A stretch of 64,000 bases of DNA from an uncultured Bacilli bacterium. Lineage in GTDB: Bacteria > Bacillota_I > Bacilli_A > RF39 > UBA660. The DNA is taken from positions 111,540-175,539 of the forward strand of contig CAKPTA010000001.1 of assembly GCA_934190785.1 (NCBI GenBank). The letters are read 5' to 3'. Positions 4,828 through 36,721 of this stretch are shown piece by piece. Below the pieces are notes generated by a model. The model searched no databases. It saw only the letters and a list, made by a program, of their open reading frames with translations, and had not been told where the DNA came from. Made by a program: the position numbers and the translations under genes. Position 1 is the first letter of the stretch; each line of letters starts with the position of its first letter.

Positions 4828-4903
4828 TGGTGGACTGTTAGGGATTCGAACCCTAGACCCACTGATTAAGAGTCAGTTGCTCTACCAACTGAGCTAACAG
4901 TCC
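4828..4903 (-). tRNA. tRNA-Lys (anticodon CTT)
   Basis: The reverse complement GGACTGTTAGCTCAGTTGGTAGAGC...CTCTTAA...GGTTCGAATCCC...CCA folds as a cloverleaf. Anticodon loop is cTCTTaa. It is very similar to Bacillus tRNA-Lys. Confidence 0.85.
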
Positions 4904-4960
4904 AATAATGACTATTTAAGTATATCATATTTTTCTTAAATGTCAATTACTATTTTAAAA

Positions 4961-5620: not shown

Positions 5621-5778
5621 TTTCTCTCTCCTTTGATGTGCCTTTCCATTTTACATAAATATTTTAATTAAATTGGTTAATTTACATAAACTGCTATTTT
5701 TGGTGTCTAAACAGAATAGTGATTGTAAAATTCGACAATATTTGATATAATGCTAAAGAGTTAGTGTGAGGTGTATGT

Positions 5779-6354
5779 ATGAACATAAAAAATAAAAAGG
5801 TCTTTATAATTATATTAGTAGTAGTCTTAATTATTACAGCTATTTCTTTATTAACAGTTAATTTTGTTAAAAATATGAAAAAAGATAGAGAAGAAACAAT
5901 AAAAACAATGGAACAAATAAAAGAAAGTTATAAAACTTTTTCACCACTAGTTGAAGAATTTAGCGGAAAAAGAACTGAATACTATACAATGAAGGATGAA
6001 AAATTATATTTAGAGGATATCTCAGATAGTAAAGAAGAAATTATTTCTTTTATGGATGAATATTCAGCTCTTGTACATAAAGTTCATGATGATTCTAAAT
6101 ATCTTGAAGATAATTGTATGAGAAAATACTCTGATAATAGAGTTAATAATACATGTAATTTATTTAAACAAGGATACGAAGCAATTATGAATTACTATAT
6201 GACTGATATAAAAGGATATAATGAATTCGTAACTTCTTATAATGAATGGCCAAAAGAAAGTAATAGCGCACTAAAGCTAGATAAAATAGAGTTTGATTTA
6301 TATAGCGATTATATTGATTATGATAAAGATGGTAGTTTTCTAGGAGGAAAGTAA
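5779..6354 (+). CDS. hypothetical membrane-anchored protein
   Basis: N-terminal TM (VFIIILVVVLIITAISLLTV). Promoter-like TTCGACA...TATAAT upstream. Confidence 0.4.
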   Translation: MNIKNKKVFIIILVVVLIITAISLLTVNFVKNMKKDREETIKTMEQIKESYKTFSPLVEEFSGKRTEYYTMKDEKLYLEDISDSKEEIISFMDEYSALVHKVHDDSKYLEDNCMRKYSDNRVNNTCNLFKQGYEAIMNYYMTDIKGYNEFVTSYNEWPKESNSALKLDKIEFDLYSDYIDYDKDGSFLGGK

Positions 6355-8162: not shown

Positions 8163-9158
8163 ATGAAAAAAGTTAGAGAATATTTAAAACAATTTGAAAA
8201 CAAGTATATTGATTCATTAGATGACTTGTTTATTTTATTTGATAGTGAAAAAATAACTTTTGATCAAAGAAAACAGCTTTTAAAAGAAGTATTAAATCAT
8301 AATGAGCAACTATATAATAAAGAGAAAATAAAAAATAAAGATGTATCTAAAAAAATTATTATCTCAGATAACGAGAACGTTTCTTCTGATATTTTAATCA
8401 ATCATGAAGAGGATAGAAAACAAGTTAAAATGCTTGATGTTAAATCTTATATAGATTTATTAATGAAGTGTAATTCAATAAATGAAATAGAGCGTGTATT
8501 ACCAGCCAGTGATAGTGAGCTATATTTAGAAAAGATTAATCAAATTTTGACTGATTGTTATCAATATAAAGTTGAAGTAATTAACTTTTTAAATTCAAAT
8601 AGTGATTTAAGTGATGAAGAAGTTAGTGAATTTAAAAAAGAAGAAGAATTAATGCAATTTATAATTGAAACTATAAGAGGTATTTTATATGAGAAAGGTG
8701 ATAATTTCTTAGAAATTGAGACTTCTAATAAATTAATATTCCAGGAAAATGGTGACAGAATAATAAGCGCTTTAAAAGATATTGATAGAGAGTATTATGA
8801 TTCTTTTAAAGAATTATTATTATCTATAAAAAATGGAAATTTTAAAAGGAATAGAAGATTTGTAAATAATAACAATATTAATGGTATTTATGAAGTTAAA
8901 AATTTTAAAACAAGAATTTTATATGATCGCATTGATATAAATACATATGTTATAATTGATGCTTTTGTAAAGAAATGTGATATTGATTCCAGATATAGAA
9001 ATCGTATTCAAAATAGTATTCAAGCTTATAGAAAAGAAGAAGCTATTTTGAGAGAAAAAGTAAAGGATGCAAATTTTCTTTCGAAACAAAAAGATATTGA
9101 AGAAGAAGTGTTTGAATTACTTGATAATAGCAAGAAAAAGGTGTTAACAAATGAATGA
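8163..9158 (+). CDS. fusion protein: unknown N-domain plus C-terminal Gp49/HigB-like (RelE-superfamily) toxin-like domain
   Basis: The C-terminus GIYEVKNFKTRILYDRIDINTYVIIDAFVKK...IQAYRKEE aligns with the Gp49-like addiction-module killer pattern G.[FY]ELR....RILY......IVL.hgFVKKTQKTP...A...Y. Confidence 0.45.
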   Translation: MKKVREYLKQFENKYIDSLDDLFILFDSEKITFDQRKQLLKEVLNHNEQLYNKEKIKNKDVSKKIIISDNENVSSDILINHEEDRKQVKMLDVKSYIDLLMKCNSINEIERVLPASDSELYLEKINQILTDCYQYKVEVINFLNSNSDLSDEEVSEFKKEEELMQFIIETIRGILYEKGDNFLEIETSNKLIFQENGDRIISALKDIDREYYDSFKELLLSIKNGNFKRNRRFVNNNNINGIYEVKNFKTRILYDRIDINTYVIIDAFVKKCDIDSRYRNRIQNSIQAYRKEEAILREKVKDANFLSKQKDIEEEVFELLDNSKKKVLTNE

Positions 9159-10872
9159 TTTAGCGGTATTAATAGGTAAAAGAATTAATATTCTAAAAGA
9201 TGAAGAATTTGATAAATTAGATGATGTATGTTTTTTTGAAGCTGCAAATGAAAAAATAGAGTTTTATTCAATACTTAAAAGTAGTATAATTATAGCTAAT
9301 TTTATTGAGGATATTTTAAATAATGATGTTTTAGAAGTAGCATGTCTTGATAACATCCCAAAGATAGATGAAGTGAATATTAGTAATGTAACTAATGAAA
9401 GAACTATTGTTGTTGATATTGAAAAAAAAGTATTTAAAGTTTCGGTTCCAAAGGATTTCAAGGAAAAATTACAAGAAGAAATAAGAAATATTTCTCTAGA
9501 TGATATTGATAGAAGAGATAAAATAATTAATAAATTTATAGAACTAGTTAGAAGTAACTACAATAATTTAAAACCACAATATGATAAATATAATAGAAAT
9601 AAAACAAAAGTACTAGTTACATATATGAAACTAGCTGAGTTCTTTCAACAATTATCACTTAAGTTAGATAATTATATTTCTATACCAGACTTTGTATATG
9701 ATATACCTTATCCTGACGATTTAAAGGCTGTTTTAAATTATATTATTGAATTAAATAAAAAATTGTATTTAGAAGAAAAAAGTAAGGAGAAAAGTGCTAC
9801 TGATTTAGAACAATATGTAGAGTTATTCCTTAAATATGGTTATAACTTTAACAATTTTAATCAAGATGAGAGAGAGCTTATTTTAAATAATAGTTCATTA
9901 TCATCTTTAAGTCACATATTTGAAATTATGCCAATTGATTTAAAAAAACTTAGTAAAAGTGATTTCTTATACATTATTTTGAATACTGATGAAAGAATTG
10001 TTTCTAATATTAAAATGTTAATTTCTAATAACAACATGAAAAAAGAATTTTTTATGAATAATCCTGGCCTTTTTGTTTCAAATTTAAAAGTTAGAATGTC
10101 AGGTAATAGAGAAGTACCACTTTATAATAATTTTATGAATAATATTGATACTTTATTTTCTCTTAATAATTTTGATTATATGATTAGGAATAATTCTGAT
10201 TTATTTTTACTTTCAAATGATATTATAAAAACTAATTTAAATCTTATAACAGAATATGGCATAGATATTTATAATGACTATAATAATAAAATATATAAGG
10301 GAGATATTTTAACTGAGTCTCTATATATGGACTATGTTGATGAATTGATTGAAATGGGATACTATAGTTATATTAAATGTCATCCTGAATATATTAAAGA
10401 AAATACCAAAAATATGATTATTAGACTTAATATTGAAGATAATATAGGTGGAAATATTATTAATGAAAAAGGTAAATTTAAAAGTAGCATAACAAGCGGT
10501 AAAAACTTTTATGTTCCAGATAGTATGTTAGATAATTACCGTATACATAAAGTTAATGAAAATAAAGAAGATATTTATTTTAAACTTTTAGATAATTCTA
10601 AAAGAAATGTTATAAGTAAAGATTTATTAAAGCTTGATATTATTAAATATTTTGATTCAAAATATAAGATAAGTGAATATGAATACTGTATTGATGATAT
10701 TATTATTTCAAGAAAGAAAGTATTAAGAAATATGCAAGCGTTAATTAATTTAAAAGAAAATGATTATAATCATATGTTGCTTTCTTCAATTGAATATAAA
10801 GCTATTATGAATGATAGTGAAATTAAAACTGTATCAGATACTATTTACGGAAAAGTATTATGTAAAAAATAG
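9151..10872 (+). CDS. hypothetical 573-aa protein, translationally coupled to the preceding Gp49-like gene
   Basis: 8-nt overlap with the upstream gene. Asn/Lys/Ile-rich. No HTH or known domain recognised. Confidence 0.35.
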   Translation: MNDLAVLIGKRINILKDEEFDKLDDVCFFEAANEKIEFYSILKSSIIIANFIEDILNNDVLEVACLDNIPKIDEVNISNVTNERTIVVDIEKKVFKVSVPKDFKEKLQEEIRNISLDDIDRRDKIINKFIELVRSNYNNLKPQYDKYNRNKTKVLVTYMKLAEFFQQLSLKLDNYISIPDFVYDIPYPDDLKAVLNYIIELNKKLYLEEKSKEKSATDLEQYVELFLKYGYNFNNFNQDERELILNNSSLSSLSHIFEIMPIDLKKLSKSDFLYIILNTDERIVSNIKMLISNNNMKKEFFMNNPGLFVSNLKVRMSGNREVPLYNNFMNNIDTLFSLNNFDYMIRNNSDLFLLSNDIIKTNLNLITEYGIDIYNDYNNKIYKGDILTESLYMDYVDELIEMGYYSYIKCHPEYIKENTKNMIIRLNIEDNIGGNIINEKGKFKSSITSGKNFYVPDSMLDNYRIHKVNENKEDIYFKLLDNSKRNVISKDLLKLDIIKYFDSKYKISEYEYCIDDIIISRKKVLRNMQALINLKENDYNHMLLSSIEYKAIMNDSEIKTVSDTIYGKVLCKK

Positions 10873-13230: not shown

Positions 13231-13860
13231 ATGGATAGTAAAAGAGTTTTTATTGGAGTATACAAAGATACTAATCAAGAATCATTGTTTTACCAAAAAG
13301 ATAATGGCTTATTTCGTGATTTGATAAAAAGTAGATCTGTTTCTATTGATGAATTAGAAAGTAATTTAATTTCTTATGATAGTTTTTGTGATAATATTAT
13401 AGAACACAGCAGTAAGGCAATTTCTTATGATAGTTTTTATGCTAACATTATAGAACACAAAAGTAAATTTAAAAGAAATATGATTAAGCTATATAATTAT
13501 GATAGAATGCAGAAAGTATCGTTAAAAAGAGTGTTTATAGGGAATAGTTATGTAGTTGCTAAAATACTTAATAGAGATTTTTTTGGTTTTTCATCATGTA
13601 CAACAACTTATAGCAGTCAAAAATTAGGTGATAGAATATTATTATATTCTGAAGATTATGATCTAGAATATAGTGATTTTATTGATATAGAGAATAATGA
13701 ATATTATAAGAATTTATTTTGTCCAGAAAAAGGAGATATTTATATTTCGATAGATGATTTAAAACCGGCTTCATTAGAACTTAATATTCATGATACGGTT
13801 GTTGAAAAACAAAAGTTGTTAGAAAAATATAGAACGTATAAAAAAGGAGGTAACAAATGA
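13231..13860 (+). CDS. hypothetical protein inserted between rpsO and pnp; contains an internal tandem repeat
   Basis: 209 aa. The repeat unit ISYDSF(C/Y)(D/A)NIIEH(S/K)SK occurs twice. A second module (KRVFIG...) is also duplicated. Overlaps the pnp start by 4 nt. Confidence 0.4.
13369..13470 (+). repeat. direct tandem repeat, 2 x 51 bp (~85% identical), in-frame within the CDS
   Basis: Copy 1 at 13369-13419 and copy 2 at 13420-13470, read directly. Confidence 0.7.
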
Positions 13861-16557: not shown

Positions 16558-19182
16558 ATGATTCAAGATTTTAAAAATAAAACAAAAGAAGAACGCCTTA
16601 TGCTATTATCAAACAGTGAATTTATAAAAAGTATTTTAGCGATGCCACCAGCTTCTCTTAATGCTTTTGGACTTTCCCTTAGTAATGATGAAATGCAAAA
16701 GTTTGTTCCATATGCATCTGATTTTACAAAAGTAGATAGAATTCGTTTTAATGCTTTTTTTAAAACATTTGGTTCAAATATTCAGAAACAATTTTTTGAT
16801 AATGAAGAATTTTTAACGTTTTACATGGAAGCAAAAAAAACACAGCGAGGATATCATCCTTTTATGTCACTTCCTGAGGATGTAAAATTATACGTTTTAG
16901 AGAAACATGAATATATTATGAGTCATATAAATAATCTTGAATATATACATAATTTAAATAAAGAAAATGAAAGATTATATCTTGATTCACTTGATACATA
17001 TATAAAAAATAATTGTAGTGATGAGCTTAAAAACATTCCTATCACTGAGCTTAGATATGTATATAGCTTGTACCATGATAAAGATTATTCTAAAGTTAAA
17101 GCTTGGTGTAAACGGGAATTTCAAATTGAAGATGAAGAATTATTTGAAAGCTTATTTAATTTAATTATTCATAATCATGCTAAACTTACTTATGCCCTAA
17201 CACTAAAAACAGAGTTAGAATGGTTATTATATTTAAAATTTGATATTTATATACCATCATTAGATGAAAAAAGTGAAAATCTAGGTATTAAACTGGATAA
17301 AGAATTATTAAAAAAAGTTAGAGTACATGATGTTAACCGTATATATAGAGAATTAGCTAATACTAATGAATTAAATGATTATGAAAAGCTTATTTTATCA
17401 CTTAATGCGTATAGTGTTTTGGGGCTTGATAATAGTTTAAAACTAGTCCGTGGTAAGTTTTCAAATATAACAGATCGTGCTCTTGATAGATCAGCAAGAT
17501 TAGATTTTACTGATAGTAGAAGAGAATATAGAATAAAACATCAAGATGAGTTTTACGGTTATCAATTATTTGATAAAGTAAAAAGGTGTTTTAAAGATGA
17601 AGAATATACATATCTAGAAAATATTTTTAAAATAAATCATAATGAAATAGATGAGTATATAAATGAAATATATTCCATGTGGAAGAAGAATGAAAAACAT
17701 GAAGAGTGGGATACCTTTTTAGCCCATATAATAAAAACAACAATTACTAGACGTGAGAAAAATTTAGAAAAAGAACACATTGAAAAATTTAAGAAAAATT
17801 ATCTAGCAAAAAGAACACATGATGTAACAATTAAAGATGTATTTATGTGTTTTCGTGATATTGATTTAAGTAATATTTCTTACAATGATAAGGGTAAACC
17901 TATAATTAATCCAGTTTTAGTTACATTTTTACTGGGAAATGAAAAAGTTGATAATGATTGTTTAATTAGACTTGTTTTAAATGGACTAGCTTTTGGACTT
18001 AATTATACGCTTGCAAATACAATTAATCATTTTAAAGCTTTAAATGATATAATTGAAAAATCTAAAGGTAAAATGAATATTAATTCTCTTTTAGATGTAA
18101 TTGATGCTAGTAAAGTATTACTTTATGAATTAGAGCCTGATGAGCAAGATATTTCTCTTGCTACAATAGCTAAAATTCAGTCTTCAAGGCAGCATTGCAA
18201 TGAACCTGTTGATGTAATTATAAGAAAAGTAAAAAAGCTTCATCATGAGAGAAAAAGTAAAGTAGCAGCTACAATTCCATTTGTTCGTGGAATAAGTGCT
18301 AATGGTATTTCTTATGGTATATTAGAGTATGATGATGAAAAAGTACTTACGGCTGGAATAGATACTGGAAGTTGTTTTAGAGTAGGCGCTAGAGGTGAAG
18401 ATTTTCTACGCTATTGTGCATTAGATAAAAATGGCGCTATATTATCCCTTACAACTAAAGAAGGTAATTATTACATTTGTCCACTTATTAGAAATGGGAA
18501 CAGTGTTTATGGAAATGGCATAGATCCAGAACCAAAAACAGAAAAAGAGACAGAGGAACTATTAACAACAATTAAAGAATGTTTCTCTAAAATGTGCCTT
18601 CGAAGTGATAAAAAAGAACCAATTGAAATAGGTGTTATCACTGATTTACATAATAAAAATTATTTTGAACATGAAACTTATGAAAAATTTAATTCTAAGG
18701 AAGCTTTTATGCTAGGAGAATACTGTTATACTGATTACTATAAATCAACAATTCAAAATTATATAATTTATAAAGAAAATAATGCTGAAACTAAATATTA
18801 CAATCCTAACATTGTTTATAGTGAGCCACGCCAAAAACCATATACATATATTTCATCAGTAGAGCAAGATAAAGAACGAATTAACCTTTTAATAAATTCA
18901 ATTGGTTACACAATATATAAAGAGGAATTAATTAAAGAAAAAAGTAGAAAAAAAGCTTTTAAAACATATAAACCATTTAATGTTGATGATTTTAAATCAA
19001 TTAATGGTGCTAAAGATTGGTTTGTAGGAATAAAAGACAACTTAACAGTTGAAAGTAGATGCTTACCATATGATAAAAGAGCAAAAATTGAAATGTATAA
19101 CGCTTTAGCTAAAATAGAAGAACAACTAAATTTTTCAGAAACTATGGAGGAAAATCTATCATGCGAGAAGAAAAAGGTATAA
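16558..19182 (+). CDS. large hypothetical protein (874 aa)
   Basis: Long uninterrupted ORF with TTGACA-17-TATATT promoter upstream. No recognised domain. Confidence 0.4.
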   Translation: MIQDFKNKTKEERLMLLSNSEFIKSILAMPPASLNAFGLSLSNDEMQKFVPYASDFTKVDRIRFNAFFKTFGSNIQKQFFDNEEFLTFYMEAKKTQRGYHPFMSLPEDVKLYVLEKHEYIMSHINNLEYIHNLNKENERLYLDSLDTYIKNNCSDELKNIPITELRYVYSLYHDKDYSKVKAWCKREFQIEDEELFESLFNLIIHNHAKLTYALTLKTELEWLLYLKFDIYIPSLDEKSENLGIKLDKELLKKVRVHDVNRIYRELANTNELNDYEKLILSLNAYSVLGLDNSLKLVRGKFSNITDRALDRSARLDFTDSRREYRIKHQDEFYGYQLFDKVKRCFKDEEYTYLENIFKINHNEIDEYINEIYSMWKKNEKHEEWDTFLAHIIKTTITRREKNLEKEHIEKFKKNYLAKRTHDVTIKDVFMCFRDIDLSNISYNDKGKPIINPVLVTFLLGNEKVDNDCLIRLVLNGLAFGLNYTLANTINHFKALNDIIEKSKGKMNINSLLDVIDASKVLLYELEPDEQDISLATIAKIQSSRQHCNEPVDVIIRKVKKLHHERKSKVAATIPFVRGISANGISYGILEYDDEKVLTAGIDTGSCFRVGARGEDFLRYCALDKNGAILSLTTKEGNYYICPLIRNGNSVYGNGIDPEPKTEKETEELLTTIKECFSKMCLRSDKKEPIEIGVITDLHNKNYFEHETYEKFNSKEAFMLGEYCYTDYYKSTIQNYIIYKENNAETKYYNPNIVYSEPRQKPYTYISSVEQDKERINLLINSIGYTIYKEELIKEKSRKKAFKTYKPFNVDDFKSINGAKDWFVGIKDNLTVESRCLPYDKRAKIEMYNALAKIEEQLNFSETMEENLSCEKKKV

Positions 19183-19373: not shown

Positions 19374-19423
19374 TTTTATTATATAAGAATTCTAAGTACA
19401 CCCACGCTCCACTTGACAAGTGG

Positions 19424-19454
19424 GGGGGGGGTGTATGCTAAAATACACTTTAGA
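19424..19454 (+). promoter_or_regulatory. putative sigma-A promoter (TTGACA ... TAAAAT) with a 19-nt spacer containing a G9 homopolymer
   Basis: -35 TTGACA at 19424-19429 lies inside the perfect palindrome ccacttg-a-caagtgg. -10 TAAAAT at 19449-19454. G run at 19433-19441. Confidence 0.4.
19433..19441. repeat. poly-G homopolymeric tract (9 G)
   Basis: Read directly. This is the only such G/C run in the window. Confidence 0.9.
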
Positions 19455-19472
19455 ATAGAGGTGTATTTTTTT

Positions 19473-21065
19473 ATGAAAAAGAAAGGTTTTACTTTAATAG
19501 AATTACTTGCCGTAATAGTTATTTTAGCTGTTGTTGCACTAATATCAATGCCACTAGTATTAAATACAATAGATAAGGCAAAGAAAGGTGCAGCTATAGA
19601 ATCAGCTAATGGTGTTATATCAGCAGCTGAGAATAAATACATGAGTAGTATGATAACAGGAGATAAAGATACAAGATTTGATTTTCCAAGTGATACCAAG
19701 TTATCAATCAAAGGAACAAGACCAACAAGTGGAACAGTTGTCGTTGATAAGAAAGGTAATATAAGTGCTACTTTAGAAATAAATGGATACTGCATAGAAA
19801 AGACGTTTCTTGAAACATCACCAAAAGTAATAGAAAAAAGTCCATGTACAATTAGTGATAGTGAGCTTTTTGAAGCAGAAAAATATAAAGATTCTGTTTT
19901 AAATGGAGCAGACCCTGTTATAAATAGTGACTTAGTAGCAGTAACAATAGAAAATGATGGAACAGTAAAAAAAGCCGATATCAAAAAAGAATGGTATAAC
20001 TATAAAAATAAAGTATGGGCCAATGCGATTATTCTAAAAGATAAAACAATAAACTATGAAGATAATGAGGTAATACCAGAAAGTAATATAGAATCATATT
20101 TTGTATGGATACCAAGATATAAATATAGAATCTTTAATGAAGGAAATTATACAAACTATATAGAAGGAAAACCAGAAAGTTCAAGCAAACCAGATACAAT
20201 AGAAATAGTATTTGAAAATAAAGATACAAGTGTATCAAATGGTTCAAAGGTAGGAGAATACTTAACACATCCAGCCTTTACAAGTTTTGAAAGTAATGGA
20301 TTTTGGATGGGAAAATTTGAAACAACTGGAAGTACAAGTAATATAACAGTAAAACCAAATAATACATCACTTCGAAATATAAATGTAAAATCAATGTTTG
20401 AGTTAGCTTACAATTATAATAGAAATCTAGATAGTCATATGCTAAAGAATACTGAGTGGGGAGCAGCTACATACTTATCATATTCAGTATATGGAATAAA
20501 TGATGAAGTAAATATAAATAATAATAGTAACTTTGTAACAGGATATAGTGCGGTTTCTGGAACAGATCAAAGTAGTTATCCTGGAACATATGGAACTGAT
20601 ACAAGTGTAACACTTGCATATAATACAGAAACAGGGTATAAGGCAAGTACAACTGGAAATATAAGTGGAGTATATGATATGAGTGGAGGAGCATGGGAAT
20701 ACATGGCTTCATATATGAAAGATACATATAAAGATAGCGGTTTTGATGCAGCCTCAATATCTTCATATAATTCAAAATACTTTGATATTTATCCAAGTGA
20801 TAGTGGTTGGACAAGTTATAATAAACGAATTTTAGGAGATGCGACAGGAGAGATAGGGCCATTCTATTATTACAAAGATAAAGATGGAAATAACAGAATA
20901 CATAACTCTTGGTTTGGGGACTACTCTTATTTCGTTGACGCTTCTTACCCTTGGTTCGTACGCGGAGGCCGTTACGCCAACGGTGTTCTTGCAGGTCAGT
21001 CGTTTTTTGATAGGTCTACTGGTGTTGCGAGCAGTTGGAATGGCTTCCGCCTTGCATTAATATAA
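19473..21065 (+). CDS. type IV prepilin-like N-terminus fused to a formylglycine-generating-enzyme (FGE/SUMF1) family domain
   Basis: MKKKG|FTLIELLAVIVILAVVALI is the prepilin cleavage/methylation motif (Gly-1, Phe+1, Glu+5). The C-terminal domain carries FGE hallmarks (...TEWGAATY..., GGAWEYM, RGGRYANG...SWNGFRLAL). I prefer ATG 19473 to the upstream track start, which reads through the G tract. Confidence 0.6.
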   Translation: MKKKGFTLIELLAVIVILAVVALISMPLVLNTIDKAKKGAAIESANGVISAAENKYMSSMITGDKDTRFDFPSDTKLSIKGTRPTSGTVVVDKKGNISATLEINGYCIEKTFLETSPKVIEKSPCTISDSELFEAEKYKDSVLNGADPVINSDLVAVTIENDGTVKKADIKKEWYNYKNKVWANAIILKDKTINYEDNEVIPESNIESYFVWIPRYKYRIFNEGNYTNYIEGKPESSSKPDTIEIVFENKDTSVSNGSKVGEYLTHPAFTSFESNGFWMGKFETTGSTSNITVKPNNTSLRNINVKSMFELAYNYNRNLDSHMLKNTEWGAATYLSYSVYGINDEVNINNNSNFVTGYSAVSGTDQSSYPGTYGTDTSVTLAYNTETGYKASTTGNISGVYDMSGGAWEYMASYMKDTYKDSGFDAASISSYNSKYFDIYPSDSGWTSYNKRILGDATGEIGPFYYYKDKDGNNRIHNSWFGDYSYFVDASYPWFVRGGRYANGVLAGQSFFDRSTGVASSWNGFRLALI

Positions 21066-21080
21066 AAATAATTATTTTTA

Positions 21081-21101
21081 AAGACAATTTTGTCTTTTTT
21101 T
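21081..21101 (+). terminator. rho-independent terminator after the pilin-FGE gene
   Basis: aagacaa-tt-ttgtctt followed by T7. Confidence 0.5.
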
Positions 21102-21125
21102 GTTATACTATTAGCAGTGATATTT

Positions 21126-22079
21126 ATGAATGAATTAGAATTAATAAATGATGTTGTTAGCAAGTATATATCCGATTGTAATATAGAAGATATGAACGAT
21201 TTTAGATTTTTAACGTCTTTAATTGATATTTTTGATAGTAATTATAAGGGAAATAAAGTTAGAGATTTTAAGAAACGTGTTTCTTTGAAACGTTGTCTTA
21301 AATATGCATATGATTTTTTTATGTCTATTAATTCAGACTATGCGGCTTACTTAGAAAAACGTTTAGATGAAGGTGCTTTTATCTTTGAAACTGGTAAAGA
21401 AAAGTATGACAATAATTTATCTATTTCTAGTATTATTGATGGTAAAGCAAAGATGATAGTATATCTTCAAAATACTATTAATGATGCTTATGCAATTACG
21501 CATGAGCTTATTCATGATATGACTATAGAAAGAGAAGGAGTAGATAATTCTGCTACAAGATCTGTATTTTGTGAAATGTTTTCCTTATTGGGAGAAGAAC
21601 TTTTAAGAGATTATTTTGAAAGGACTACTAGGCCAAGTGAGTATGAACTTGAGAGTAAATATAATTTATATGTAATCTCTTGGAAAAATAAAATTATTTT
21701 ATATGAGCTTCATTTAATTGAAACTTATCTTAATAATGGGTATATTCATGCTACTGATTTAGCTTATGGTGATGATGATCTTGTATGCGGTATTGCACTT
21801 GATGATATTTTAGATAATAAGGATTTAAGTTTTCCTTTTGAAGAAAGGTATGTAATAGGTTATTTATTTGCGTGTTATATGCTTGATAGAGTTGATAGTA
21901 ATAGTAAAAATATTAATGAATTTTTTGAACTTAATGATATTATTAATAAATTTAAATTTTTAAATTTGACAAATTATTTAGAACTTGATGTAGTGGATGC
22001 TAGAACATTTGATTTAACAGATGAATCTTATAAAAAGATAGAAAATGCTTTTGTTAAAAGGTTAAAGAAAGTTAGGTAA
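21126..22079 (+). CDS. HExxH...E putative gluzincin metallopeptidase, paralog 1
   Basis: HELIH, then a Glu about 20 aa downstream (FCEMFS). I prefer ATG 21126 because the track TTG start lies inside the terminator. Confidence 0.45.
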   Translation: MNELELINDVVSKYISDCNIEDMNDFRFLTSLIDIFDSNYKGNKVRDFKKRVSLKRCLKYAYDFFMSINSDYAAYLEKRLDEGAFIFETGKEKYDNNLSISSIIDGKAKMIVYLQNTINDAYAITHELIHDMTIEREGVDNSATRSVFCEMFSLLGEELLRDYFERTTRPSEYELESKYNLYVISWKNKIILYELHLIETYLNNGYIHATDLAYGDDDLVCGIALDDILDNKDLSFPFEERYVIGYLFACYMLDRVDSNSKNINEFFELNDIINKFKFLNLTNYLELDVVDARTFDLTDESYKKIENAFVKRLKKVR

Positions 22080-22107
22080 ATGATTGTAAAATAAAGTGGG
22101 GGTAATA

Positions 22108-23151
22108 ATGGTGACAGTAGAAGAGTATAAAAAATTAAATGATTATTTAAATGGCTGTTTTATTAAATTAGAAAGAAATGACTGGTTTTTATTAGATAAT
22201 ATAAGTTTTTTTGATAAACTTAGTAAAGCTTTTATTGAAACTGTTAATGAATATGATTTAGGCATGAATACTGAAGCTTGTAATATTAGTTTTAATGATA
22301 TTTACGTTTTAGCTCGTGAAATTCTTGAAGATATTTCACCATCATATTTGCCTATATTTGATACTTTAATAAAAAGCGGCGAGCTTGATTTTAGTTATGA
22401 GAATGAATATAAAACTTCTTGTGTTACATATGATCATTTAAATGATGTTTCTCTAATTAATATTAATTTAAGTTTTACACATCAAGATGTTGCTACTTTA
22501 ATTCATGAGTTTATGCATAAAATTAATTATGGCAATTCTTTTAATTGGTATATATTTACAGAATTTATCTCTATTTATTTTGAGGAATATGCGAAACGAT
22601 ATTTACTTAATAAAGGCATTTTTAAAGATAGTTTGAATTTAAATCTTAGAATATCTAATACATTAATATGTGCAAGTGATATTGTTAGTTATTCTCGTAT
22701 TATTTTTGCATATGAAAAAATGGGTAAAATTGATATGAATTCATATGAATTTTTAGATGAATATTTTACTCCTACAGATAAAGATGATTTTGAAGATGAA
22801 TGTAAAGTATTTTTACAAAAAATTCAAAAAATTGAGAATAGTTATAAAATGTCTATTTTGTATGAAAAAGATTTTAATGAAAATGAATTATATGATAAAA
22901 TTATTAGAAGTTTATCTAAGGGGTATCGTTATATTTTAGGAACTGCCGTAGCTTATTATGCATTAGAACATTGTAATAAAGAAGATATTGTATATTTATC
23001 TTGGCATATTAATGATGAAGAGTTTAGAAATATTTCTTTTTTTGAATGTTTAAATAAAATTGGAATAAGTAGTGATATTATAACGATTAATGATTGTACT
23101 GATGCGGTAAAAAAGGTACTTGAAAATAATTCACATAAAAAAGATAGGTGA
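22108..23151 (+). CDS. HExxH...E putative gluzincin metallopeptidase, paralog 2
   Basis: HEFMH ... FTEFIS. Same size and layout as paralog 1. Ends 5 nt before miaA. Confidence 0.45.
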   Translation: MVTVEEYKKLNDYLNGCFIKLERNDWFLLDNISFFDKLSKAFIETVNEYDLGMNTEACNISFNDIYVLAREILEDISPSYLPIFDTLIKSGELDFSYENEYKTSCVTYDHLNDVSLININLSFTHQDVATLIHEFMHKINYGNSFNWYIFTEFISIYFEEYAKRYLLNKGIFKDSLNLNLRISNTLICASDIVSYSRIIFAYEKMGKIDMNSYEFLDEYFTPTDKDDFEDECKVFLQKIQKIENSYKMSILYEKDFNENELYDKIIRSLSKGYRYILGTAVAYYALEHCNKEDIVYLSWHINDEEFRNISFFECLNKIGISSDIITINDCTDAVKKVLENNSHKKDR

Positions 23152-23155
23152 TTAG

Positions 23156-24037
23156 ATGGTTATTGTAATTACAGGTCCAACTTGTGTTGGTAAAACAAAA
23201 ATGAGTGTAGAGCTTGCTCATATATTAGATGGAGAAGTTGTGAATGCAGATTCAACACAAGTATATAAAGAGATGGATATAGCAACTGCTAAAGTAAGTG
23301 AAGAGGAAAAAGAAAATATACCTCATCATTTGTTTGATATTAAAGATATTAGTGATGACTATAGTATTTATGATTATCAACAAGATGCAAGACTTATAAT
23401 TAATGATATATTAAAACGTGGTAAAATTCCAATTTTAGTTGGAGGAACAGGACTATATATAAAGGCAGCTCTTTACAATTATCAATTTATTGAGGAAGAA
23501 AAAAAGTATGATTATAGCACTTATTCTAATAGTGAGCTTTATCAAGAATTACTTAAAGTTGACCCAAATACTGATATTCACATGAATAATAGAAAAAGAG
23601 TAGAACGTGCACTTAATTATTATAAAAACAATAAAGTACCTATGAGTTCTAAAGAACGTAGTAGTGAACTTATGTATGATGATGTGTTATTTATTGGTCT
23701 TACTACTGATAGAAGTATTTTATATGATAAGATTAATGCTAGAGTAGATAATATGGTAGATAATGGTTTACTTGATGAAGCATTTAAAATTTATTCATCT
23801 GGTATTAGGAGTAAAGCTGTTTTAACACCTATTGGATATAAGGAATTGTTTCCATATTTTGAACATAAAAAAGAGCTTTATGAATGCCTAGATGATATAA
23901 AGAAAAACAGTAGACATTATGCGAAGAGGCAATACACTTTTTTTAATAATCAACTTCCTATCAAGTGGTTTTATGTTGACTATAACTATTTTAATAAAAC
24001 AATTAATGATGTTTTAAATTATATAAAAAATAGCTAA
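23156..24037 (+). CDS. miaA: tRNA dimethylallyltransferase
   Basis: ITGPTCVGKTKMSVELA P-loop and DSTQVYKEMDIATAK. Confidence 0.9.
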   Translation: MVIVITGPTCVGKTKMSVELAHILDGEVVNADSTQVYKEMDIATAKVSEEEKENIPHHLFDIKDISDDYSIYDYQQDARLIINDILKRGKIPILVGGTGLYIKAALYNYQFIEEEKKYDYSTYSNSELYQELLKVDPNTDIHMNNRKRVERALNYYKNNKVPMSSKERSSELMYDDVLFIGLTTDRSILYDKINARVDNMVDNGLLDEAFKIYSSGIRSKAVLTPIGYKELFPYFEHKKELYECLDDIKKNSRHYAKRQYTFFNNQLPIKWFYVDYNYFNKTINDVLNYIKNS

Positions 24038-27716: not shown

Positions 27717-29459
27717 ATGAATTTAAAGGATTTATATATTAATTTTTTTGTAAGTAAAGGACATGTTCAAATACCAAGTGCACCAGTTGTACCTGAAAAT
27801 GATCCATCTGTTTTATTTAATACTGCAGGAATGCAACCACTTGTACCGTATTTAATGGGTGAAGTTCATCCATATGGGACACGCCTTTGTGATTATCAAA
27901 AATGTGTTCGAACAAATGATTTAGAAGAAATTGGTGATACAACGCATCATACTTTTTTTGAAATGCTTGGTAATTGGAGTTTAGGAGACTATTTTAAAGA
28001 AGAAGCAATTTCTTGGAGTTTTGAATTTTTAACAAGTGTTTTAAAAATACCAGTTGAAAGACTAGCTGTTACGGTATTTGGTGGTAATGAATATATTGAT
28101 TTTGATAAAGAGTCTTATAATAAGTGGTTATCACTTGGAATTAAAGAATCTAGAATTGCTAAGACTAGTGATGATAATTTTTGGATAGCAGGAGAAGCAG
28201 GACCTTGTGGACCTGACACAGAAATATTTTATTGGCGTAGCGATGATGAAATTCCTGATACTTTTGATACTGAAGATGATAGATGGGTTGAAATATGGAA
28301 TAATGTTTTTATGGCATACAATAAAAGCCTAGAGGGTGTTATTACTGATTTACCAAAGAAGAATGTAGATACTGGTATGGGTGTTGAGAGAGTAACAGCA
28401 ATTTTAGAGGGTGTAGATGATAATTATTTATCTTCTATATGGCGTGATGTTATAAGTTTAATAGAAAATATTTCTGGACTTTCTTATAATGGTAATGAAA
28501 AAAGTATGCGTGTTATAGCTGATCACATTAGAACAGCGGTATTTATTGCAGCTGATCCTGCTGGTATTAAGCCAAGTAATACAGATCAAGGTTATATTTT
28601 AAGAAGATTAATAAGACGTGCGATTAGACATGCAAAGAAACTTAATATTGATATTAATAGTAATTGGGAAAGTGAAATAGCTAAATTAATTATCGATAAA
28701 TATAAAAAATATTATAGTGAAATTGAGAGTAATAAAAATGTTGTTTTAGATGTTTTAAAACAAGAAAAAGAAAAATTTAATCGTACACTTGAAAAGGGAC
28801 TTAGGGAATTTGAAAAAGTAAGTAATACAGATATTGACGCTAATGTTGCTTTTCATCTTTATGATACTTATGGCTTTCCAATCGAACTTACTTTAGAGCT
28901 TGCATCTGAAAAAAATCTTAAAGTAGATGTTGAGGGCTTCAAAGAAAAATTTAGGGCTCATCAAGAATTATCTCGTACAGCTTCTAAAGGAAAATTTAAA
29001 GGTGGACTTGCTGGAAATAGTGAAATAGAAATTAAGTATCATACAGCAACACATTTACTTAATGCTGCTTTAAAAGTCGTTTTAGGAAGCGATGTTCATC
29101 AAAAAGGTTCAAATATAACTGATGAGAGAATGCGTTTTGATTTTTCTTGTGATCACAAGTTAACAGATGAAGAGAAAAAAGCGGCTGAAGATTTAGTAAA
29201 TAAATGGATTAGTGAGGCTATTCCTGTTACAAAGAAGGAAATGTCTAAGGAAGAAGCAATTAAATCAGGTGCAGAATGTATGTTTATTGAAAAATATCCA
29301 GATGTTGTAACTGTATATAGTATAGGCGATGTCTCACATGAACTATGTGGAGGTCCACATGTTAAAAACACAAGTGAACTTGGGCACTTCAAAATAAAGA
29401 AAGAAGAAGCAAGTAGTGCTGGTGTTCGTAGAATTAAAGCAATTTTAGAAGATGCATAA
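27717..29459 (+). CDS. alaS: alanine--tRNA ligase, short form (catalytic, tRNA-recognition and editing domains; no C-Ala domain)
   Basis: N-terminal FNTAGMQPLVPYLMG...GNWSLGDYFK. Editing motifs HTATHLLNAAL and CGGPHV. The ORF stops at 580 aa in front of a terminator. Confidence 0.85.
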   Translation: MNLKDLYINFFVSKGHVQIPSAPVVPENDPSVLFNTAGMQPLVPYLMGEVHPYGTRLCDYQKCVRTNDLEEIGDTTHHTFFEMLGNWSLGDYFKEEAISWSFEFLTSVLKIPVERLAVTVFGGNEYIDFDKESYNKWLSLGIKESRIAKTSDDNFWIAGEAGPCGPDTEIFYWRSDDEIPDTFDTEDDRWVEIWNNVFMAYNKSLEGVITDLPKKNVDTGMGVERVTAILEGVDDNYLSSIWRDVISLIENISGLSYNGNEKSMRVIADHIRTAVFIAADPAGIKPSNTDQGYILRRLIRRAIRHAKKLNIDINSNWESEIAKLIIDKYKKYYSEIESNKNVVLDVLKQEKEKFNRTLEKGLREFEKVSNTDIDANVAFHLYDTYGFPIELTLELASEKNLKVDVEGFKEKFRAHQELSRTASKGKFKGGLAGNSEIEIKYHTATHLLNAALKVVLGSDVHQKGSNITDERMRFDFSCDHKLTDEEKKAAEDLVNKWISEAIPVTKKEMSKEEAIKSGAECMFIEKYPDVVTVYSIGDVSHELCGGPHVKNTSELGHFKIKKEEASSAGVRRIKAILEDA

Positions 29460-29508: not shown

Positions 29509-29721
29509 ATGGAATTTTTAAATATAACAATTGATGGTAAAAGATACGATTATGTAACATCTATAAATTATAATTCAAAATCATATGTAGCACTCGCTAA
29601 TGCGGATGTTATAACTATAAGTGAATATGATATTGTTGATGGGAAACTTATTTTGTATCAAATCAGCGATGATGTATTTAAAAGTGTGAGTGAGGTGATG
29701 TGCTTAAATGATAAAGTATAA
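29509..29721 (+). CDS. small DUF1292-like protein (paralog of the 32777..33067 gene)
   Basis: 70 aa. The pattern (..YDYVTSINYNSKSYVAL.....ITISEYDIVDGK) resembles DUF1292/UPF0473. Confidence 0.3.
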   Translation: MEFLNITIDGKRYDYVTSINYNSKSYVALANADVITISEYDIVDGKLILYQISDDVFKSVSEVMCLNDKV

Positions 29722-30892
29722 ATTTTATGTTGATAATGATGGCACTTTAAACTGCCTAAAAAGTGATTCCATAAAAAATGAGAAAATGGAACCAGAAAAA
29801 GCTATTCAATTATTTAAGAAATTTGACAAAAAATCATTTACTCATGTTGATATAAGTTCTAGAAATATGATTTTTAAAGTTGATAATGTAGAAATTCACT
29901 TTATAAATTATCTAGAAATAATTTCTGAATATAATTTTTATTTATCAAACACTTTACCTAAAATAGAGAGGTTACTTAATCGTAATCAAAAGAAAAAACA
30001 TAGTAATAAGCGCCTTCATAATTTGAAATTAGCAGGTATTGGCGTTACTGTTGGCTCACTTGCAATGTGCTCTTTAGTAATGAACTATAATGCTAAAAAA
30101 AGTAACTTTGTTAATAATAATATTGATGAAATATTATTGGATGATAGTGATACAAAAGAGAATAATTATGATTTAGGTGATAATGTTAAAATTAATGAAA
30201 ATATAGTTGATAAAGAACAGGATGTAACACATATTGATTATGAGAGCGAGAGATATTCAAAGACAGGTGAATATGCGTATAATCTTTATTACGAAACTAT
30301 TTTGCCTTATGCTTGTGAGTGGGGAATTTCGCCTGAACTTGTAATGGCAATTTTAACACAGGAAAGTGCAGGTAAAAATTCTAATTTAATGCAAATAGAA
30401 TTTTCGGCCTGGGAAGATCAAGTTCTTAAAGTATATAATTTTGATAGTAATGAAAATAAAAAATATGTTTTAACTAATGATCCTAAAAAATATAATGGTA
30501 AAGATATTATTTGTATTAGTGAAGAATAATTAAATAATCCAAGAATTAATATATCTGTTGGATGCATTCTTTTAACTGAAGCTATGAAAAGTATGCATTA
30601 TCATATTGGAGCTGGAATTCAGTGCTATAATTTTGGCGTTGGTAATATGCGTAAAGTTTTAGAAAAAACAAGTAGTGAAACTAAAGAGAGTATTGATGAA
30701 ATTTTATCTTCACAAAAAAATCTTGATTTTACTAATTATACAAATATTATTAAAGCTGGAGATAAGGATTATTTAAAACATGTTTTAAGGTATTTAAGTG
30801 ACTATGATGATGGTATTAAAATAAAATATGTAGATGATAGTGGTAATATATGTGAGAATAATGTAACAATATTACCAAGTAAAACAAAGTAA
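29708..30892 (+). pseudogene. membrane-anchored family-1 lytic transglycosylase (SLT domain) interrupted by a single in-frame TAA at 30527-30529
   Basis: ORFs 29708..30529 and 30584..30892 share a frame. The SLT motifs are split across them: ...AILTQESAG... before the stop and ...YNFGVGNMRKV (AYNAGxGxV-like) after it. Confidence 0.5.
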
Positions 30893-33067: not shown

Positions 33068-34154
33068 TAGCTCGTCTTTGTATATGAAGAAGTATAATTC
33101 ACTTTTGAAAATTATTGTTACATTTATAATTAGTATTTTAATGTTTTTATATATTCTATATCACTTTTTATTATCTAGTCCTTCTAGTAATAAGAATATT
33201 ATTTCTTTTGAAGTAAAGTCAGGTGATAGTCTTCTTACTATTGCAGATGAATTAAAAGACTCAGGACTTATTAGGTCTAAGCTTGCTTATAAGTTATACA
33301 TTAAATTTCATAAAGTAAGTGGCCTAGAAGCTGGTGTTTATGAACTTACGCCTAATATGGATGTTGTTGCTTTAACTAAAACTTTATCGGGAAAAAGTAA
33401 GAATACAAATAATATAAAAATAACATTTAAAGAAGGCATAAATATGCGAGCTGTTGCAGCTTTAATTGAAAAGAATACTAATTATAGTGAAGAAGATGTA
33501 TATGATCTTTTATCTGATGATGAATTTCTTAATGAATTAATTGAAAAGTATTGGTTTTTAACAGATGAAATAAAAAATAAAAATATATATTATTCTCTTG
33601 AAGGATATTTATTTCCAAATACATATGAGTTTAAAAAAGATGCTACTTTAGAAGAAATGTTTATTACGCTTTTAAACGAAACAGATAAAGTATTAAGTAA
33701 ATATAAAAGCGATATTAATAAGAGTTCTTATTCTATCCATGAACTTTTAACACTAGCTTCTATAGTTGAGCTTGAAGCAAGTAGAGATGTTGATAGAGCG
33801 TCAGTAGCAGGTGTATTTTATAATCGTTTAGAGAATAATTGGTCACTAGGAAGTGATGTTACAACTTATTATGCGGCTCGTGTTGATATGAGTGAACGTG
33901 ATTTATATGTATCTGAATTAAATGATTATAATGCTTATAACACAAGAAGTAGTAAAATGGCTGGTAAACTTCCTGTTGGACCAATTTGTAATCCTAGTGA
34001 AGAATCAATTCTAGCAGCGATTAATCCAGTGAGTCATAATTACTTTTATTTTGTTGCTGATAAAAATAAAAAGACTTATTTTTCACGTACTTCAAGTGAG
34101 CATGCAAAAACAATAAGTGAGTTAAAGGAAGCGGGATTATGGTACGAATACTAG
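33021..34154 (+). CDS. mltG: endolytic murein transglycosylase MltG (YceG-like)
   Basis: N-terminal TM and YceG-like domain. The true start may be ATG ~33087 (MKKYNSLLK). Confidence 0.8.
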   Translation: MKYKILLKMERKASNNSSSLYMKKYNSLLKIIVTFIISILMFLYILYHFLLSSPSSNKNIISFEVKSGDSLLTIADELKDSGLIRSKLAYKLYIKFHKVSGLEAGVYELTPNMDVVALTKTLSGKSKNTNNIKITFKEGINMRAVAALIEKNTNYSEEDVYDLLSDDEFLNELIEKYWFLTDEIKNKNIYYSLEGYLFPNTYEFKKDATLEEMFITLLNETDKVLSKYKSDINKSSYSIHELLTLASIVELEASRDVDRASVAGVFYNRLENNWSLGSDVTTYYAARVDMSERDLYVSELNDYNAYNTRSSKMAGKLPVGPICNPSEESILAAINPVSHNYFYFVADKNKKTYFSRTSSEHAKTISELKEAGLWYEY

Positions 34155-34720
34155 AAGAAATGGAAGAATATGCAGCATTAAATAATATTCCTATTATGAT
34201 GCCAGATGGTATAGAGTTTTTACTTGAATATATAAAAGAACATCATGTTAAGAATATTCTTGAGATAGGTAGCGCTATTGGATACTCTTCAATTAGGATG
34301 GCTAGTGTAGATGAAAGTATTAAAGTTACAACAATTGAAAGAGACGAAAAAAGATATGCGATGGCTTTGAAAAATATCCATAAAGCTGGGTTAGATAATA
34401 GAATAGAAATAATAGCTGGAGATGCTCTAGAGACTAATATCGATTCTATATATGATTTAATTTTTATTGATGCTGCCAAAGCGCAATATATTAAATTTTT
34501 TGAAAAATATAAGCATAATTTAAGTATGGATGGAGCAATTGTATCTGATAATTTAAATTTTCATGGATTAGTTCATGAAGACACCAGTACAATGAGTCGT
34601 AATGTTAGGGGACTTGTTAGAAAAATTAATTTGTATGTTGATTTTTTAACTAATAATGATGAATTTAAAACAGAATTTTATTCTATTGGTGATGGTATTG
34701 GAATAAGTACAAGAAAATAA
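34139..34720 (+). CDS. class I SAM-dependent O-methyltransferase (TrmR/YrrM-like tRNA ho5U methyltransferase)
   Basis: O-methyltransferase family 3 motifs (ILEIGSAIGYSS, IFIDAAK). Confidence 0.7.
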   Translation: MVRILEEMEEYAALNNIPIMMPDGIEFLLEYIKEHHVKNILEIGSAIGYSSIRMASVDESIKVTTIERDEKRYAMALKNIHKAGLDNRIEIIAGDALETNIDSIYDLIFIDAAKAQYIKFFEKYKHNLSMDGAIVSDNLNFHGLVHEDTSTMSRNVRGLVRKINLYVDFLTNNDEFKTEFYSIGDGIGISTRK

Positions 34721-34772
34721 CTTGTACTTTTCTTTTTCTGTGATATAATAAAAGACCAAATGAGGGGTTATT

Positions 34773-35831
34773 ATGGAGTATAGTTTTGATAAAAATGAAT
34801 TAAAAAGTAAACTAAAAGAAAGTAAAAGATTATATAAAAATGGAATTATAACACAAAATGAATATAACATACTTATGCGTCAAATTAAAATGTTATTAGG
34901 TCATGTAAAAAAAGAAAAGAGTAGTTTTCCTTCATTAAAAGAAAAGCTAACAAAAATAAATAATATGCTTGTTTATTATGATCAAATGTTAACTGATGAT
35001 AGCGTGACTACATTAGAAACATTAGTAGATAATGTTTTAGATGATGAAATTCCAAAACCTAAAGAGATATCTTATCCAGTAGGAAATGAAGAACTTCTTA
35101 AATTAGTGCTGGATTTATATAAAGAGGTAAGCAGTGATGATAGTGATTTTTTAAGTGAGTTAGCAAATAATGGTAAACTTGAAATATCTCTTCCAAAATA
35201 TAGTTTTGATATGACTTCAATAACACAACTTCTATATTATAATGATTTCTATATAAGAATTGTACGTAGTAATACAGTTTATGATGCTTGTAGTATCGCT
35301 CATGAATTTAGACATATTTTAGATCGTAAAAATACAACTAAAATTGAAGGTAATGTTTTAAGCGAGATTAATCCTATTTTTATGGAACTTTATTTTAATT
35401 CTAAATTATATAAAGAAAATAATACTTTTGGAGAAGCTATTATAGATAGACTATATGATAATTATAAAATGGCTAGTAATATTAACGCTTTTCTAGCTCT
35501 TCTTAATTGTAGATATAATATAGCTCCTGCAACTGATGATATTATTTATGAGTGTTTTAATTGTAGTAATGAGTTAGAGCTTCTAGATATTATTGATGAT
35601 TTATCAAGTGGTTTGTTCTGTTTAAATTTTGATTATTTTATTGGTACAATAGGTGCTATAAATATATATTATAAAGCGCTAGATAATATATATGATGCTT
35701 TAAAAATAGTAAATAAAATAGCTTATAATATATCTTCACCAATTGAACTTGATGATGTTTTAAAATATTTAGGTAGTGATTCTGTAGAGCAATATCATAA
35801 TTTTGTAAATACATATGTTAAAAAGAAATAA
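34773..35831 (+). CDS. HExxH...E putative gluzincin metallopeptidase, paralog 3
   Basis: HEFRH ... SEINP. Same ~350-aa architecture as the 21126 and 22108 genes. Sits between trmR and the U32 pair. Confidence 0.45.
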   Translation: MEYSFDKNELKSKLKESKRLYKNGIITQNEYNILMRQIKMLLGHVKKEKSSFPSLKEKLTKINNMLVYYDQMLTDDSVTTLETLVDNVLDDEIPKPKEISYPVGNEELLKLVLDLYKEVSSDDSDFLSELANNGKLEISLPKYSFDMTSITQLLYYNDFYIRIVRSNTVYDACSIAHEFRHILDRKNTTKIEGNVLSEINPIFMELYFNSKLYKENNTFGEAIIDRLYDNYKMASNINAFLALLNCRYNIAPATDDIIYECFNCSNELELLDIIDDLSSGLFCLNFDYFIGTIGAINIYYKALDNIYDALKIVNKIAYNISSPIELDDVLKYLGSDSVEQYHNFVNTYVKKK

Positions 35832-35860
35832 AAATGATATAATGGATTAGGAGTGATTTT

Positions 35861-36721
35861 ATGACAAAACTAATTACTATACCAACAAAGCAAAATTTAA
35901 GTAATATTGTAGAATATAGTGATGCTATATTAATTGGAATTGATAATTTATCGGTTAATGTTCCAGATACTTATAGTATTCATGAAGTAGAAGAGATTAT
36001 TAAAAAATATAATCAAATAGAGTTTTTTGTAGCACTTAATAAAAATATGCATAAATGTGATCTAGATAGCCTAAAAGACACTTTAATAAAACTAGATAAG
36101 ATGAATATAGCAGGAATTTTTTATTATGATATAGCTGTTTTAGAATACAGAAACACTTTAAATTTAAAGGTTCCTTTAGTATGGAGTCAAGAACATTTAA
36201 CTACTAATTATGCGACTATGAATTATTGGTATAATGAAAATGTTAATTATACTTATGTATCTAGTGAAATAACACTAGATGAAATTATAGAAAATAGAAA
36301 AAATACAAAAATGAAACTTATTGTTCCTATTTTCGGGTATTTACCTATGTTTGTATCAAAAAGACATCTTGTAGAAAATTATTTAGAATATTTTAACCTT
36401 GATAAAAAGAGTAGCAAATATGAACTTGAGAAAGATTCAAAATTATATCCTGTTAGTATAATATCTAATGATACTACTATATATTCATCACATATTTTAA
36501 ATGGATTATCTGAACTTAAAGTTTTGGAAGAAAATAATATTGAATATGTGACACTTAATTCATACAATATTGATACGTCTAAGTTTATTGATGTTTTAAA
36601 AATATATAAAAGCAGATTATATGAAAGTGAAAAGGAAATTGATATGGTGTTTGATAATTTAGATAAAGGATTTTTATATAAAGAAACGGTATATAGGGTG
36701 AAGAAGAATGAAAAGAAGTAA
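35861..36721 (+). CDS. peptidase U32 family protein, YrrN-like
   Basis: Adjacent to and overlapping the canonical U32 gene. This is the YrrN-YrrO arrangement of B. subtilis. Confidence 0.55.
   Translation: MTKLITIPTKQNLSNIVEYSDAILIGIDNLSVNVPDTYSIHEVEEIIKKYNQIEFFVALNKNMHKCDLDSLKDTLIKLDKMNIAGIFYYDIAVLEYRNTLNLKVPLVWSQEHLTTNYATMNYWYNENVNYTYVSSEITLDEIIENRKNTKMKLIVPIFGYLPMFVSKRHLVENYLEYFNLDKKSSKYELEKDSKLYPVSIISNDTTIYSSHILNGLSELKVLEENNIEYVTLNSYNIDTSKFIDVLKIYKSRLYESEKEIDMVFDNLDKGFLYKETVYRVKKNEKK

Follow-up and report, generated by a model that had tools for sequence, protein, structure and literature searches.

We analysed a 64,000 bp stretch of DNA from an uncultured Bacilli bacterium (assembly GCA_934190785.1, contig CAKPTA010000001.1, positions 111,540 to 175,539 of the forward strand), referred to here as the window. 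With a GC content of 27.5%, it carries housekeeping genes (PNPase, miaA, alaS, ruvX, mltG/YceG, trmR, two U32 genes, greA, trigger factor, a Mur ligase, Ddl, uvrC and mutL), a gene content that is of the small-genome Firmicute type. It also carries three open reading frames (ORFs), termed paralogs A, B and C, that encode putative zinc metallopeptidases with an HExxH motif followed by a conserved Glu. All three exist as the initial annotation of this DNA had described and are intact; they are listed here with their lengths in amino acids (aa):

21126–22079, forward strand: paralog A, 317 aa, A-type subfamily; HELIH at 126–130, E150 as putative third zinc ligand, and E157; acidic (isoelectric point, pI, 4.7) and predicted to be cytoplasmic
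22108–23151, forward strand: paralog B, 347 aa, B-type subfamily; HEFMH at 133–137, E152, E159 and the conserved Y275
34773–35831, forward strand: paralog C, 352 aa, fast-diverged orphan; HEFRH at 177–181, E198, P201, E205 and Y288

An upstream stop bounds each gene, giving maximal ORFs of 329, 351 and 352 aa for A, B and C, respectively. The longest ORF for A (21090–22079) opens at a TTG that sits within a hairpin (AAAGACAA/TTGTCTTT plus a T-run) read by eye, on which the terminator scan was silent; the start was set at ATG 21126 because the N-termini of homologues match there, this being the start position in all 15 of them. The start of B is probably ATG 22108, judging from the sequence: the longest ORF is 22096–23151, a GGGGG ribosome-binding site lies approximately 8 nt before this ATG, and the database protein that is 100% identical to B (P0017) has 347 aa. 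The start of C is preceded by GAGGGG, and A and B are separated by 28 nt.

Catalytic motif and paralogy

Common to A, B and C is an HExxH followed by E-x2-[S/P]-x3-E, in which the first Glu lies 15–20 residues on (+20 in A, E150; +15 in B, E152; +17 in C, E198), in good agreement with the earlier description of a Glu in an E-x-x-S/P context about 20 aa after the motif. The same description had put HExxH at residue ~135–150; in C the motif comes later, at 177. Five HExxH sequences occur in the window among six-frame ORFs of at least 60 aa, and only A, B and C have the full motif; the other two lie in ORFs 45649–46404 and 55800–56495. H126, E127, H130, E150 and E157 of A are invariant among 16 homologues, and in a joint alignment (n = 52, C numbering) H177, E178, H181 and E198 are invariant and S201, E205, G134, Y288 and G291 almost so. 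Across 202 family sequences at 15–50% identity the two His, the intervening Glu and the ligand Glu are conserved in 100%, the second Glu in 98% and a C-terminal Tyr (Y275 of B) in 94%. The invariance of these four catalytic residues argues for an active metal site, so that all three proteins probably function as zinc peptidases in the cytoplasm. No signal peptide or transmembrane segment was found at their N-termini; their net charge is −14 to −22, and the median pI of the family is 4.95.

In the predicted structure of B the HExxH lies in helix 126–139 and the conserved Glu in helix 145–168, and in that of C they lie in helices 169–186 and 195–216. Both models have these helices as a helix-loop-helix with a small beta-sheet before them, which is the gluzincin arrangement. 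Motif and predicted helices thus fit the pattern of clan MA(E), an HExxH helix with a Glu on the next helix, that the initial annotation had anticipated.

Paralogy beyond the motif region was not visible by BLASTP, which gave weak pairwise matches (A–B, E 0.14; A–C, E 2e-4 over 113 aa; B–C, E 0.04). Profiles were therefore compared. Homologue searches had yielded 16 (A) and 65 (B) proteins, and for C a single match, the 99% identical P0082. The A and B families aligned end to end (99.3% probability, E 8e-21, 305 columns), the B family aligned with C over 214 columns (94.6% probability, E 7e-8), and the A family aligned with C at 72% probability (E 3.4e-5). Homology thus extends over most of the length, which upholds the proposed paralogy even though BLASTP left it undecided. 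Judged from these profiles, A, B and C are true and very old paralogs, comprising an A-type subfamily, a B-type subfamily and the fast-evolving orphan C. We also considered whether A and B could be the two halves of a split PepF, and ruled this out, as each has a complete set of motifs and the two align end to end with each other.

Paralog C stands apart in several respects. It carries some 45 additional residues in a helical segment at the N-terminus, has Pro in place of the conserved Ser and has lost several other family-conserved residues. A word-indexed search of 5.8 billion proteins returned P0082 as its sole match, a metagenome scan for its relatives returned copies at 97–100% identity only, and a combined-profile search of 1.84 billion representatives returned nothing C-like among the best 150 of 1,723 matches. 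Such features, together with an A-like copy in locus L022 that lies after tadA as two ORFs (8374–8703 and 8788–9291) resembling a gene split by frameshift or pseudogenisation, would suit catalytically dead remnants or decaying M3B duplicates, C in particular, with a structural or chaperone-like role or no function. We find this reading most improbable, given the invariance of the catalytic residues noted above and the complete length of A, B and C in the majority of the listed cluster members, their full-length ORFs recurring on dozens of contigs. Moreover, among 12 full-length variants of C the motif segment is invariant while 39 other positions vary. One locus (L033, VOFC01000530.1) matches the window at 98.7% identity over 9 kb with 31 gap openings or indels, one of which, a 1-nt insertion, shifts the frame of C near codon 55. 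This most likely reflects long-read assembly error and not a real pseudogene; because the 31 indels fit such error, a comparison of nonsynonymous and synonymous substitution rates between the C genes of the window and L033 was dropped.

Relation to the M3B oligoendopeptidases

Single-sequence searches of Pfam (E ≤ 1) and NCBIfam gave no match for A, B or C, and the N-terminal domain model Peptidase_M3_N (PF08439) matched neither these proteins nor any of the 52 members scanned. When the PDB was searched by phmmer with single sequences nothing useful emerged, C matching only designed repeat proteins, which we treated as noise; the B-family profile likewise gave only chance matches to PDB sequences. 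The A-family profile matched one solved structure, the M3B oligoendopeptidase F 2qr4 (E 2.9e-4, positions 57–164 against 303–416), in a register that places HExxH over HEMGH and CE-x-FS-x3-E over AEIASTTNE. The motifs of the family thus align with those of a solved M3B enzyme, at a spacing of 15–20 residues compared with 24 in 2qr4.

Structure prediction points the same way. An AlphaFold model of B (predicted local distance difference test, pLDDT, 92.6; predicted template modelling score, pTM, 0.91) was compared with the PDB by Foldseek, and the top eight structures were all M3B enzymes (Pz-peptidase A, 3ce2, 2h1n/2h1j and 3sks). The model of C (pLDDT 81.5) ranked folds as that of B did (3ce2, 14.3; 2h1j, 14.2; 2qr4, 12.8). 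On these models the fold is closest to M3B structures, followed by M32 carboxypeptidase Taq, M2 (ACE/ACE2) and M3A (neurolysin/Dcp/OpdA), two-lobed proteins of 500–700 aa that scored below M3B and gave no sequence-level match in PDB searches with A, B, C and the family profiles. The M3/M2-like assignment made initially was therefore sound. Thermolysin (M4) and small gluzincins (M30 lugdulysin and MATCAP) resemble the family in having a Glu on the helix after HExxH and in their size of about 300–360 aa; thermolysin was not the closest relative by fold or by sequence. No significant match to the family was found among PHROGs and PADLOC models, and IMG/VR held no viral relatives, so that a phage or defence metalloprotease is not indicated.

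The family shares with the M3B enzymes PepF and Pz-peptidase A (2qr4, 2h1j/2h1n, 3ce2, 3sks and 3aho/3ahm) the HExxH with E-x2-S-x3-E on the next helix and a cytoplasmic location without signal peptide, but it lacks the two-lobed form of ~560–600 aa with its channel-closing N-terminal domain. PepF proteins have 565–595 aa, whereas A, B and C have 317–352. In 2qr4 (587 residues) HExxH is found at index 369, after some 368 residues, compared with positions 126, 133 and 177 in the three paralogs, where about 125–176 residues precede it. C-terminal to the motif they are of almost full length (171–210 residues, compared with 214 in 2qr4). Approximately 200–240 N-terminal residues of PepF are therefore absent, and identity in the structural alignments is only 11–15%. 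Shortened M3B proteins coexist in this lineage at several sizes, since in locus L020 a 440-aa protein (4543–5865; HEISH...SEMFSMFNE) is encoded immediately upstream of a B-type gene. It reaches 29.6 bits against Peptidase_M3 (threshold 27), matches 2qr4 at E 1.2e-6 and is about 100 aa longer N-terminally than the B type, to whose profile it is weakly linked (hhalign 25.6%, E 7e-4); it may be an intermediate-length M3B form. The family clearly descends from M3B, although it falls outside Peptidase_M3 as modelled at present in Pfam and is without the M3B two-lobe architecture, and it most likely works as M3B enzymes do.

We think it fairly probable that A, B and C are deeply diverged paralogs within a family of compact (~305–355 aa), acidic, cytoplasmic zinc metallopeptidases derived from the M3B fold, which would degrade intracellular oligopeptides. 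By homology, one Zn2+ would be held by both His of HExxH and the first Glu of E-x2-S/P-x3-E, with the Glu of HExxH acting as general base on the zinc-bound water. In M3 and M2 enzymes a Tyr stabilises the transition state, a role that the near-invariant C-terminal Tyr (Y242 in A, Y275 in B and Y288 in C) could take. In M3 structures the N-terminal helices form a large part of the lobe that shuts off the substrate channel, and because these residues are missing the cleft is probably more open than the deep closed channel of PepF. Likely substrates would be products of protein turnover, cleaved signal peptides or peptide signals, with specificity that has probably diverged between the paralogs. 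The genes are carried in housekeeping operons, and C has its own promoter-like element within the trmR–trhP cluster. By analogy, the nearest functional parallel would be the roles of PepF in degrading intracellular oligopeptides and pheromones.

Several observations weigh against an oligopeptidase of this kind. Peptidase_M3 (PF01432, gathering threshold 27 bits) was matched by only one of 52 members, below threshold (16.6 bits, E 0.0052), and the His-to-Glu spacing is shorter than in 2qr4. Because the model of C drew on a joint multiple sequence alignment of A- and B-type sequences, it does not independently support the fold of C. Without the N-terminal domain the substrate class might be another one altogether, and a generic peptidase role leaves unexplained the conserved siting of the genes between those for tRNA modification.

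Genomic context and tRNA-modification genes

The neighbouring genes in the window are those reported previously, miaA following B, and a trmR-type gene and two U32 genes flanking C, all as identified by Pfam; they are listed with two sequence elements upstream of C:

23156–24037, forward strand: miaA, tRNA dimethylallyltransferase (IPPT, PF01715, E 1.4e-73)
34139–34720, forward strand: trmR/yrrM-type O-methyltransferase, upstream neighbour of C (Methyltransf_3, E 3.9e-27)
34705–34729, forward strand: terminator-like hairpin (9 bp stem plus TTCTTTTTCT) from the terminator scan, overlapping the trmR stop and directly upstream of C
34739–34749, 3′ of the hairpin and before C: extended -10-like element TGTGATATAAT, read by eye and absent from the scan output
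35861–37925, forward strand: two U32 genes downstream of C, one of 286 aa with the U32 domain only (yrrN/trhP2-like) and one of 405 aa with U32 and U32_C (yrrO/trhP1-like)

The miaA ATG (23156) begins after a 4-nt spacer from the stop of B (23151), which places the tandem pair just before miaA as described earlier. The AGGTGA ribosome-binding site of miaA lies inside the 3′ end of B and the scan found no terminator-like site between the two genes, making the proposed co-transcription of B with miaA plausible from the sequence; A, B and miaA appear to form a single transcription unit. The terminator-like site within A, at 21486–21507 over the HExxH codons, is no more than chance would give (1 found, 1.1 expected). 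Directly upstream of A (19413–21065, forward strand) is a gene for a 550-aa pilin-like protein with a prepilin-type N-terminal methylation motif (N_methyl, PF07963) and a weak FGE-sulfatase-like domain, homologues of which occur near family members in L001, L018 and L028.

Around C, the scan found 4 terminators where 1.1 were expected, among them the hairpin at 34705–34729. Because this hairpin and the -10-like TGTGATATAAT precede C, it is perhaps not co-transcribed with trmR; a second extended -10-like element, TGATATAAT, is located at 35833–35845 before the first U32 gene. Promoter scans carried no information in this 27.5% GC DNA (61 and 58 found, ~47 and ~49 expected). In Bacillus subtilis the genes for TrmR and for TrhP2 and TrhP1, which are tRNA U34 hydroxylation factors, form the yrrM-yrrN-yrrO operon of mo5U34 synthesis (PMC6599085), and the domain pattern of the U32 pair in the window fits the description of yrrN/yrrO given there. 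The sequence suggests that here, in contrast to the yrrMNO operon of B. subtilis, trmR, C and the trhP genes are transcribed as separate units. Where two of the three copies had been thought to lie beside tRNA-modification genes, all three do, since the U32 pair is the trhP2/trhP1 counterpart.

We mapped the neighbours of family members in 39 loci (L001–L039) using locus proteins as queries; 31 of these are species-level GTDB loci, to which the following counts refer. The dominant order is queA, an optional A-like gene, a B-like gene, miaA, sometimes tadA, sometimes a further A-like gene, lspA and a rluD-like gene: the B-like gene precedes miaA in 15 of 31 loci and queA lies upstream in 16; the arrangement also occurs in L034–L039. 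Tandem pairs of A-like and B-like genes are present in six loci, while L034 and L035 have three paralogs in a single run and L036 and L038 have queA, an A-like gene and miaA. In its compact form (L034, 614–7277; also L035, L038, L039 and L022) the run reads queA, A-like, B-like, miaA, tadA, A-like, lspA and rluD-like, and thus clusters three anticodon-loop tRNA-modification genes with up to three of these mini-M3B paralogs. A second order, RNase R, smpB, B-like, engB and engA, is found in six loci, and nine match neither. In the window itself queA is not adjacent, its place upstream of A being occupied by the pilin-like gene. At L009 (3616–5963) a B-type gene is immediately preceded by genes for a helix-turn-helix protein and for a large serine recombinase (Resolvase/Recombinase/Zn_ribbon_recom), which may represent the insertion of a mobile element beside the locus.

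This siting raises the question of whether the family, instead of being a general peptidase, works in partnership with anticodon-loop tRNA-modification enzymes, as a zinc hydrolase that would process, mature or regulate QueA, MiaA, TadA or TrmR–TrhP, or cleave an amide-linked intermediate or by-product of the pathway. Besides the interleaving of up to three paralogs with queA, miaA and tadA, the position of C between trmR and trhP2-trhP1 at a second, unlinked site speaks in favour of this, as do the start/stop overlaps or 4-nt gaps with miaA, which suggest translational coupling. However, the loci all belong to a single group of related gut Bacilli, for which one inherited synteny with tandem duplications in situ could suffice; 15 of the 31 lie elsewhere, in the RNase R–engA order or in various settings, and the terminator-like hairpin separates C from trmR. 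The proteins are also strongly acidic, unlike what would be expected of an RNA binder, which makes an RNA-binding role unlikely, and longer members (377–544 aa) showed no informative domain fusions, including any to RNA-related domains. We therefore regard such a partnership as distinctly unlikely. That the mini-M3B proteins are a dedicated component of an anticodon-loop tRNA-modification cluster (queA-X-X-miaA-tadA-X and trmR-X-trhP2-trhP1), acting as a zinc hydrolase on modification enzymes, maturing or regulating them, or hydrolysing an amide-linked intermediate, seems highly unlikely to us; if true, it would reveal a previously unknown protease or hydrolase layer in the tRNA modification of reduced-genome gut Bacilli. 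The link to tRNA modification is stronger than the initial annotation held, but it may reflect inherited synteny.

A further possibility, a narrower subset of the oligopeptidase function that we favour, is that the proteins serve specifically to degrade peptide pheromones or signal peptides after cleavage. Oligopeptidase A (OpdA) degrades lipoprotein signal peptides and PepF acts on Phr peptides. In L022 and L034–L039 the third copy lies directly upstream of lspA, the gene for signal peptidase II, and the XIP pheromone is among the intracellular peptides degraded by the M3 enzyme PepF (PMC9173638). The lspA adjacency is nevertheless limited to one subgroup and does not extend to A, B or C of the window, and pheromone or Rgg/ComR-type genes were not noticed nearby; by analogy with these enzymes a dedicated role of this type would be conceivable, though we consider it unlikely.

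Family distribution and other ORFs of the window

A HMMER scan of 1.84 billion representatives (50% identity) recovered 1,723 sequences at E ≤ 1e-3, 852 at E ≤ 1e-10 and 229 at E ≤ 1e-30, so that the family is not small. Among the 150 matches listed, lengths are mostly 305–355 aa. All 31 genome loci derive from metagenome-assembled genomes of uncultured gut “Bacilli”, “Tenericutes” or “Erysipelotrichaceae”, including Ca. Faecisoma merdavium, with a few bins labelled Muribaculaceae, and source annotations of members amount at most to “hypothetical protein”. The family is undescribed, having no Pfam or NCBIfam model. Two members of ~540 aa (P0152 and P0192) have the mini-M3B domain at about 9–335, followed by a C-terminal extension of ~210 aa without Pfam match.

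If the oligopeptidase reading is correct, a large family of at least 1,723 clusters at 50% identity consists of the M3B/PepF catalytic core minus some 200–240 N-terminal residues. It could then be a candidate for a new subfamily of M3, or a new family, and would bear on how the closed channel of M3, M2 and M32 enzymes contributes to substrate gating and size selection. It would also matter for annotating the numerous uncultured gut Bacilli of small genome size in which one to three copies or more are present. The siting among queA, miaA and tadA and within the trmR–trhP operon offers a lead towards a possible connection of peptide hydrolysis with tRNA modification, although the evidence for a functional link is weak at present.

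Elsewhere in the window, an 874-aa ORF without Pfam match (16558–19182, forward strand) lies between PNPase and the pilin-like gene, and further ORFs without Pfam match occur at 8163–9158 (331 aa), 9151–10872 (573 aa), 13231–13860 (209 aa) and 29708–30529 (273 aa). Bacterial alanyl-tRNA synthetases have about 870 aa, whereas the ORF at 27717–29459 (forward strand) encodes only 580 (tRNA-synt_2c and tRNA_SAD) and may lack the C-terminal part; the short form is apparently conserved in L012, L014 and L024.

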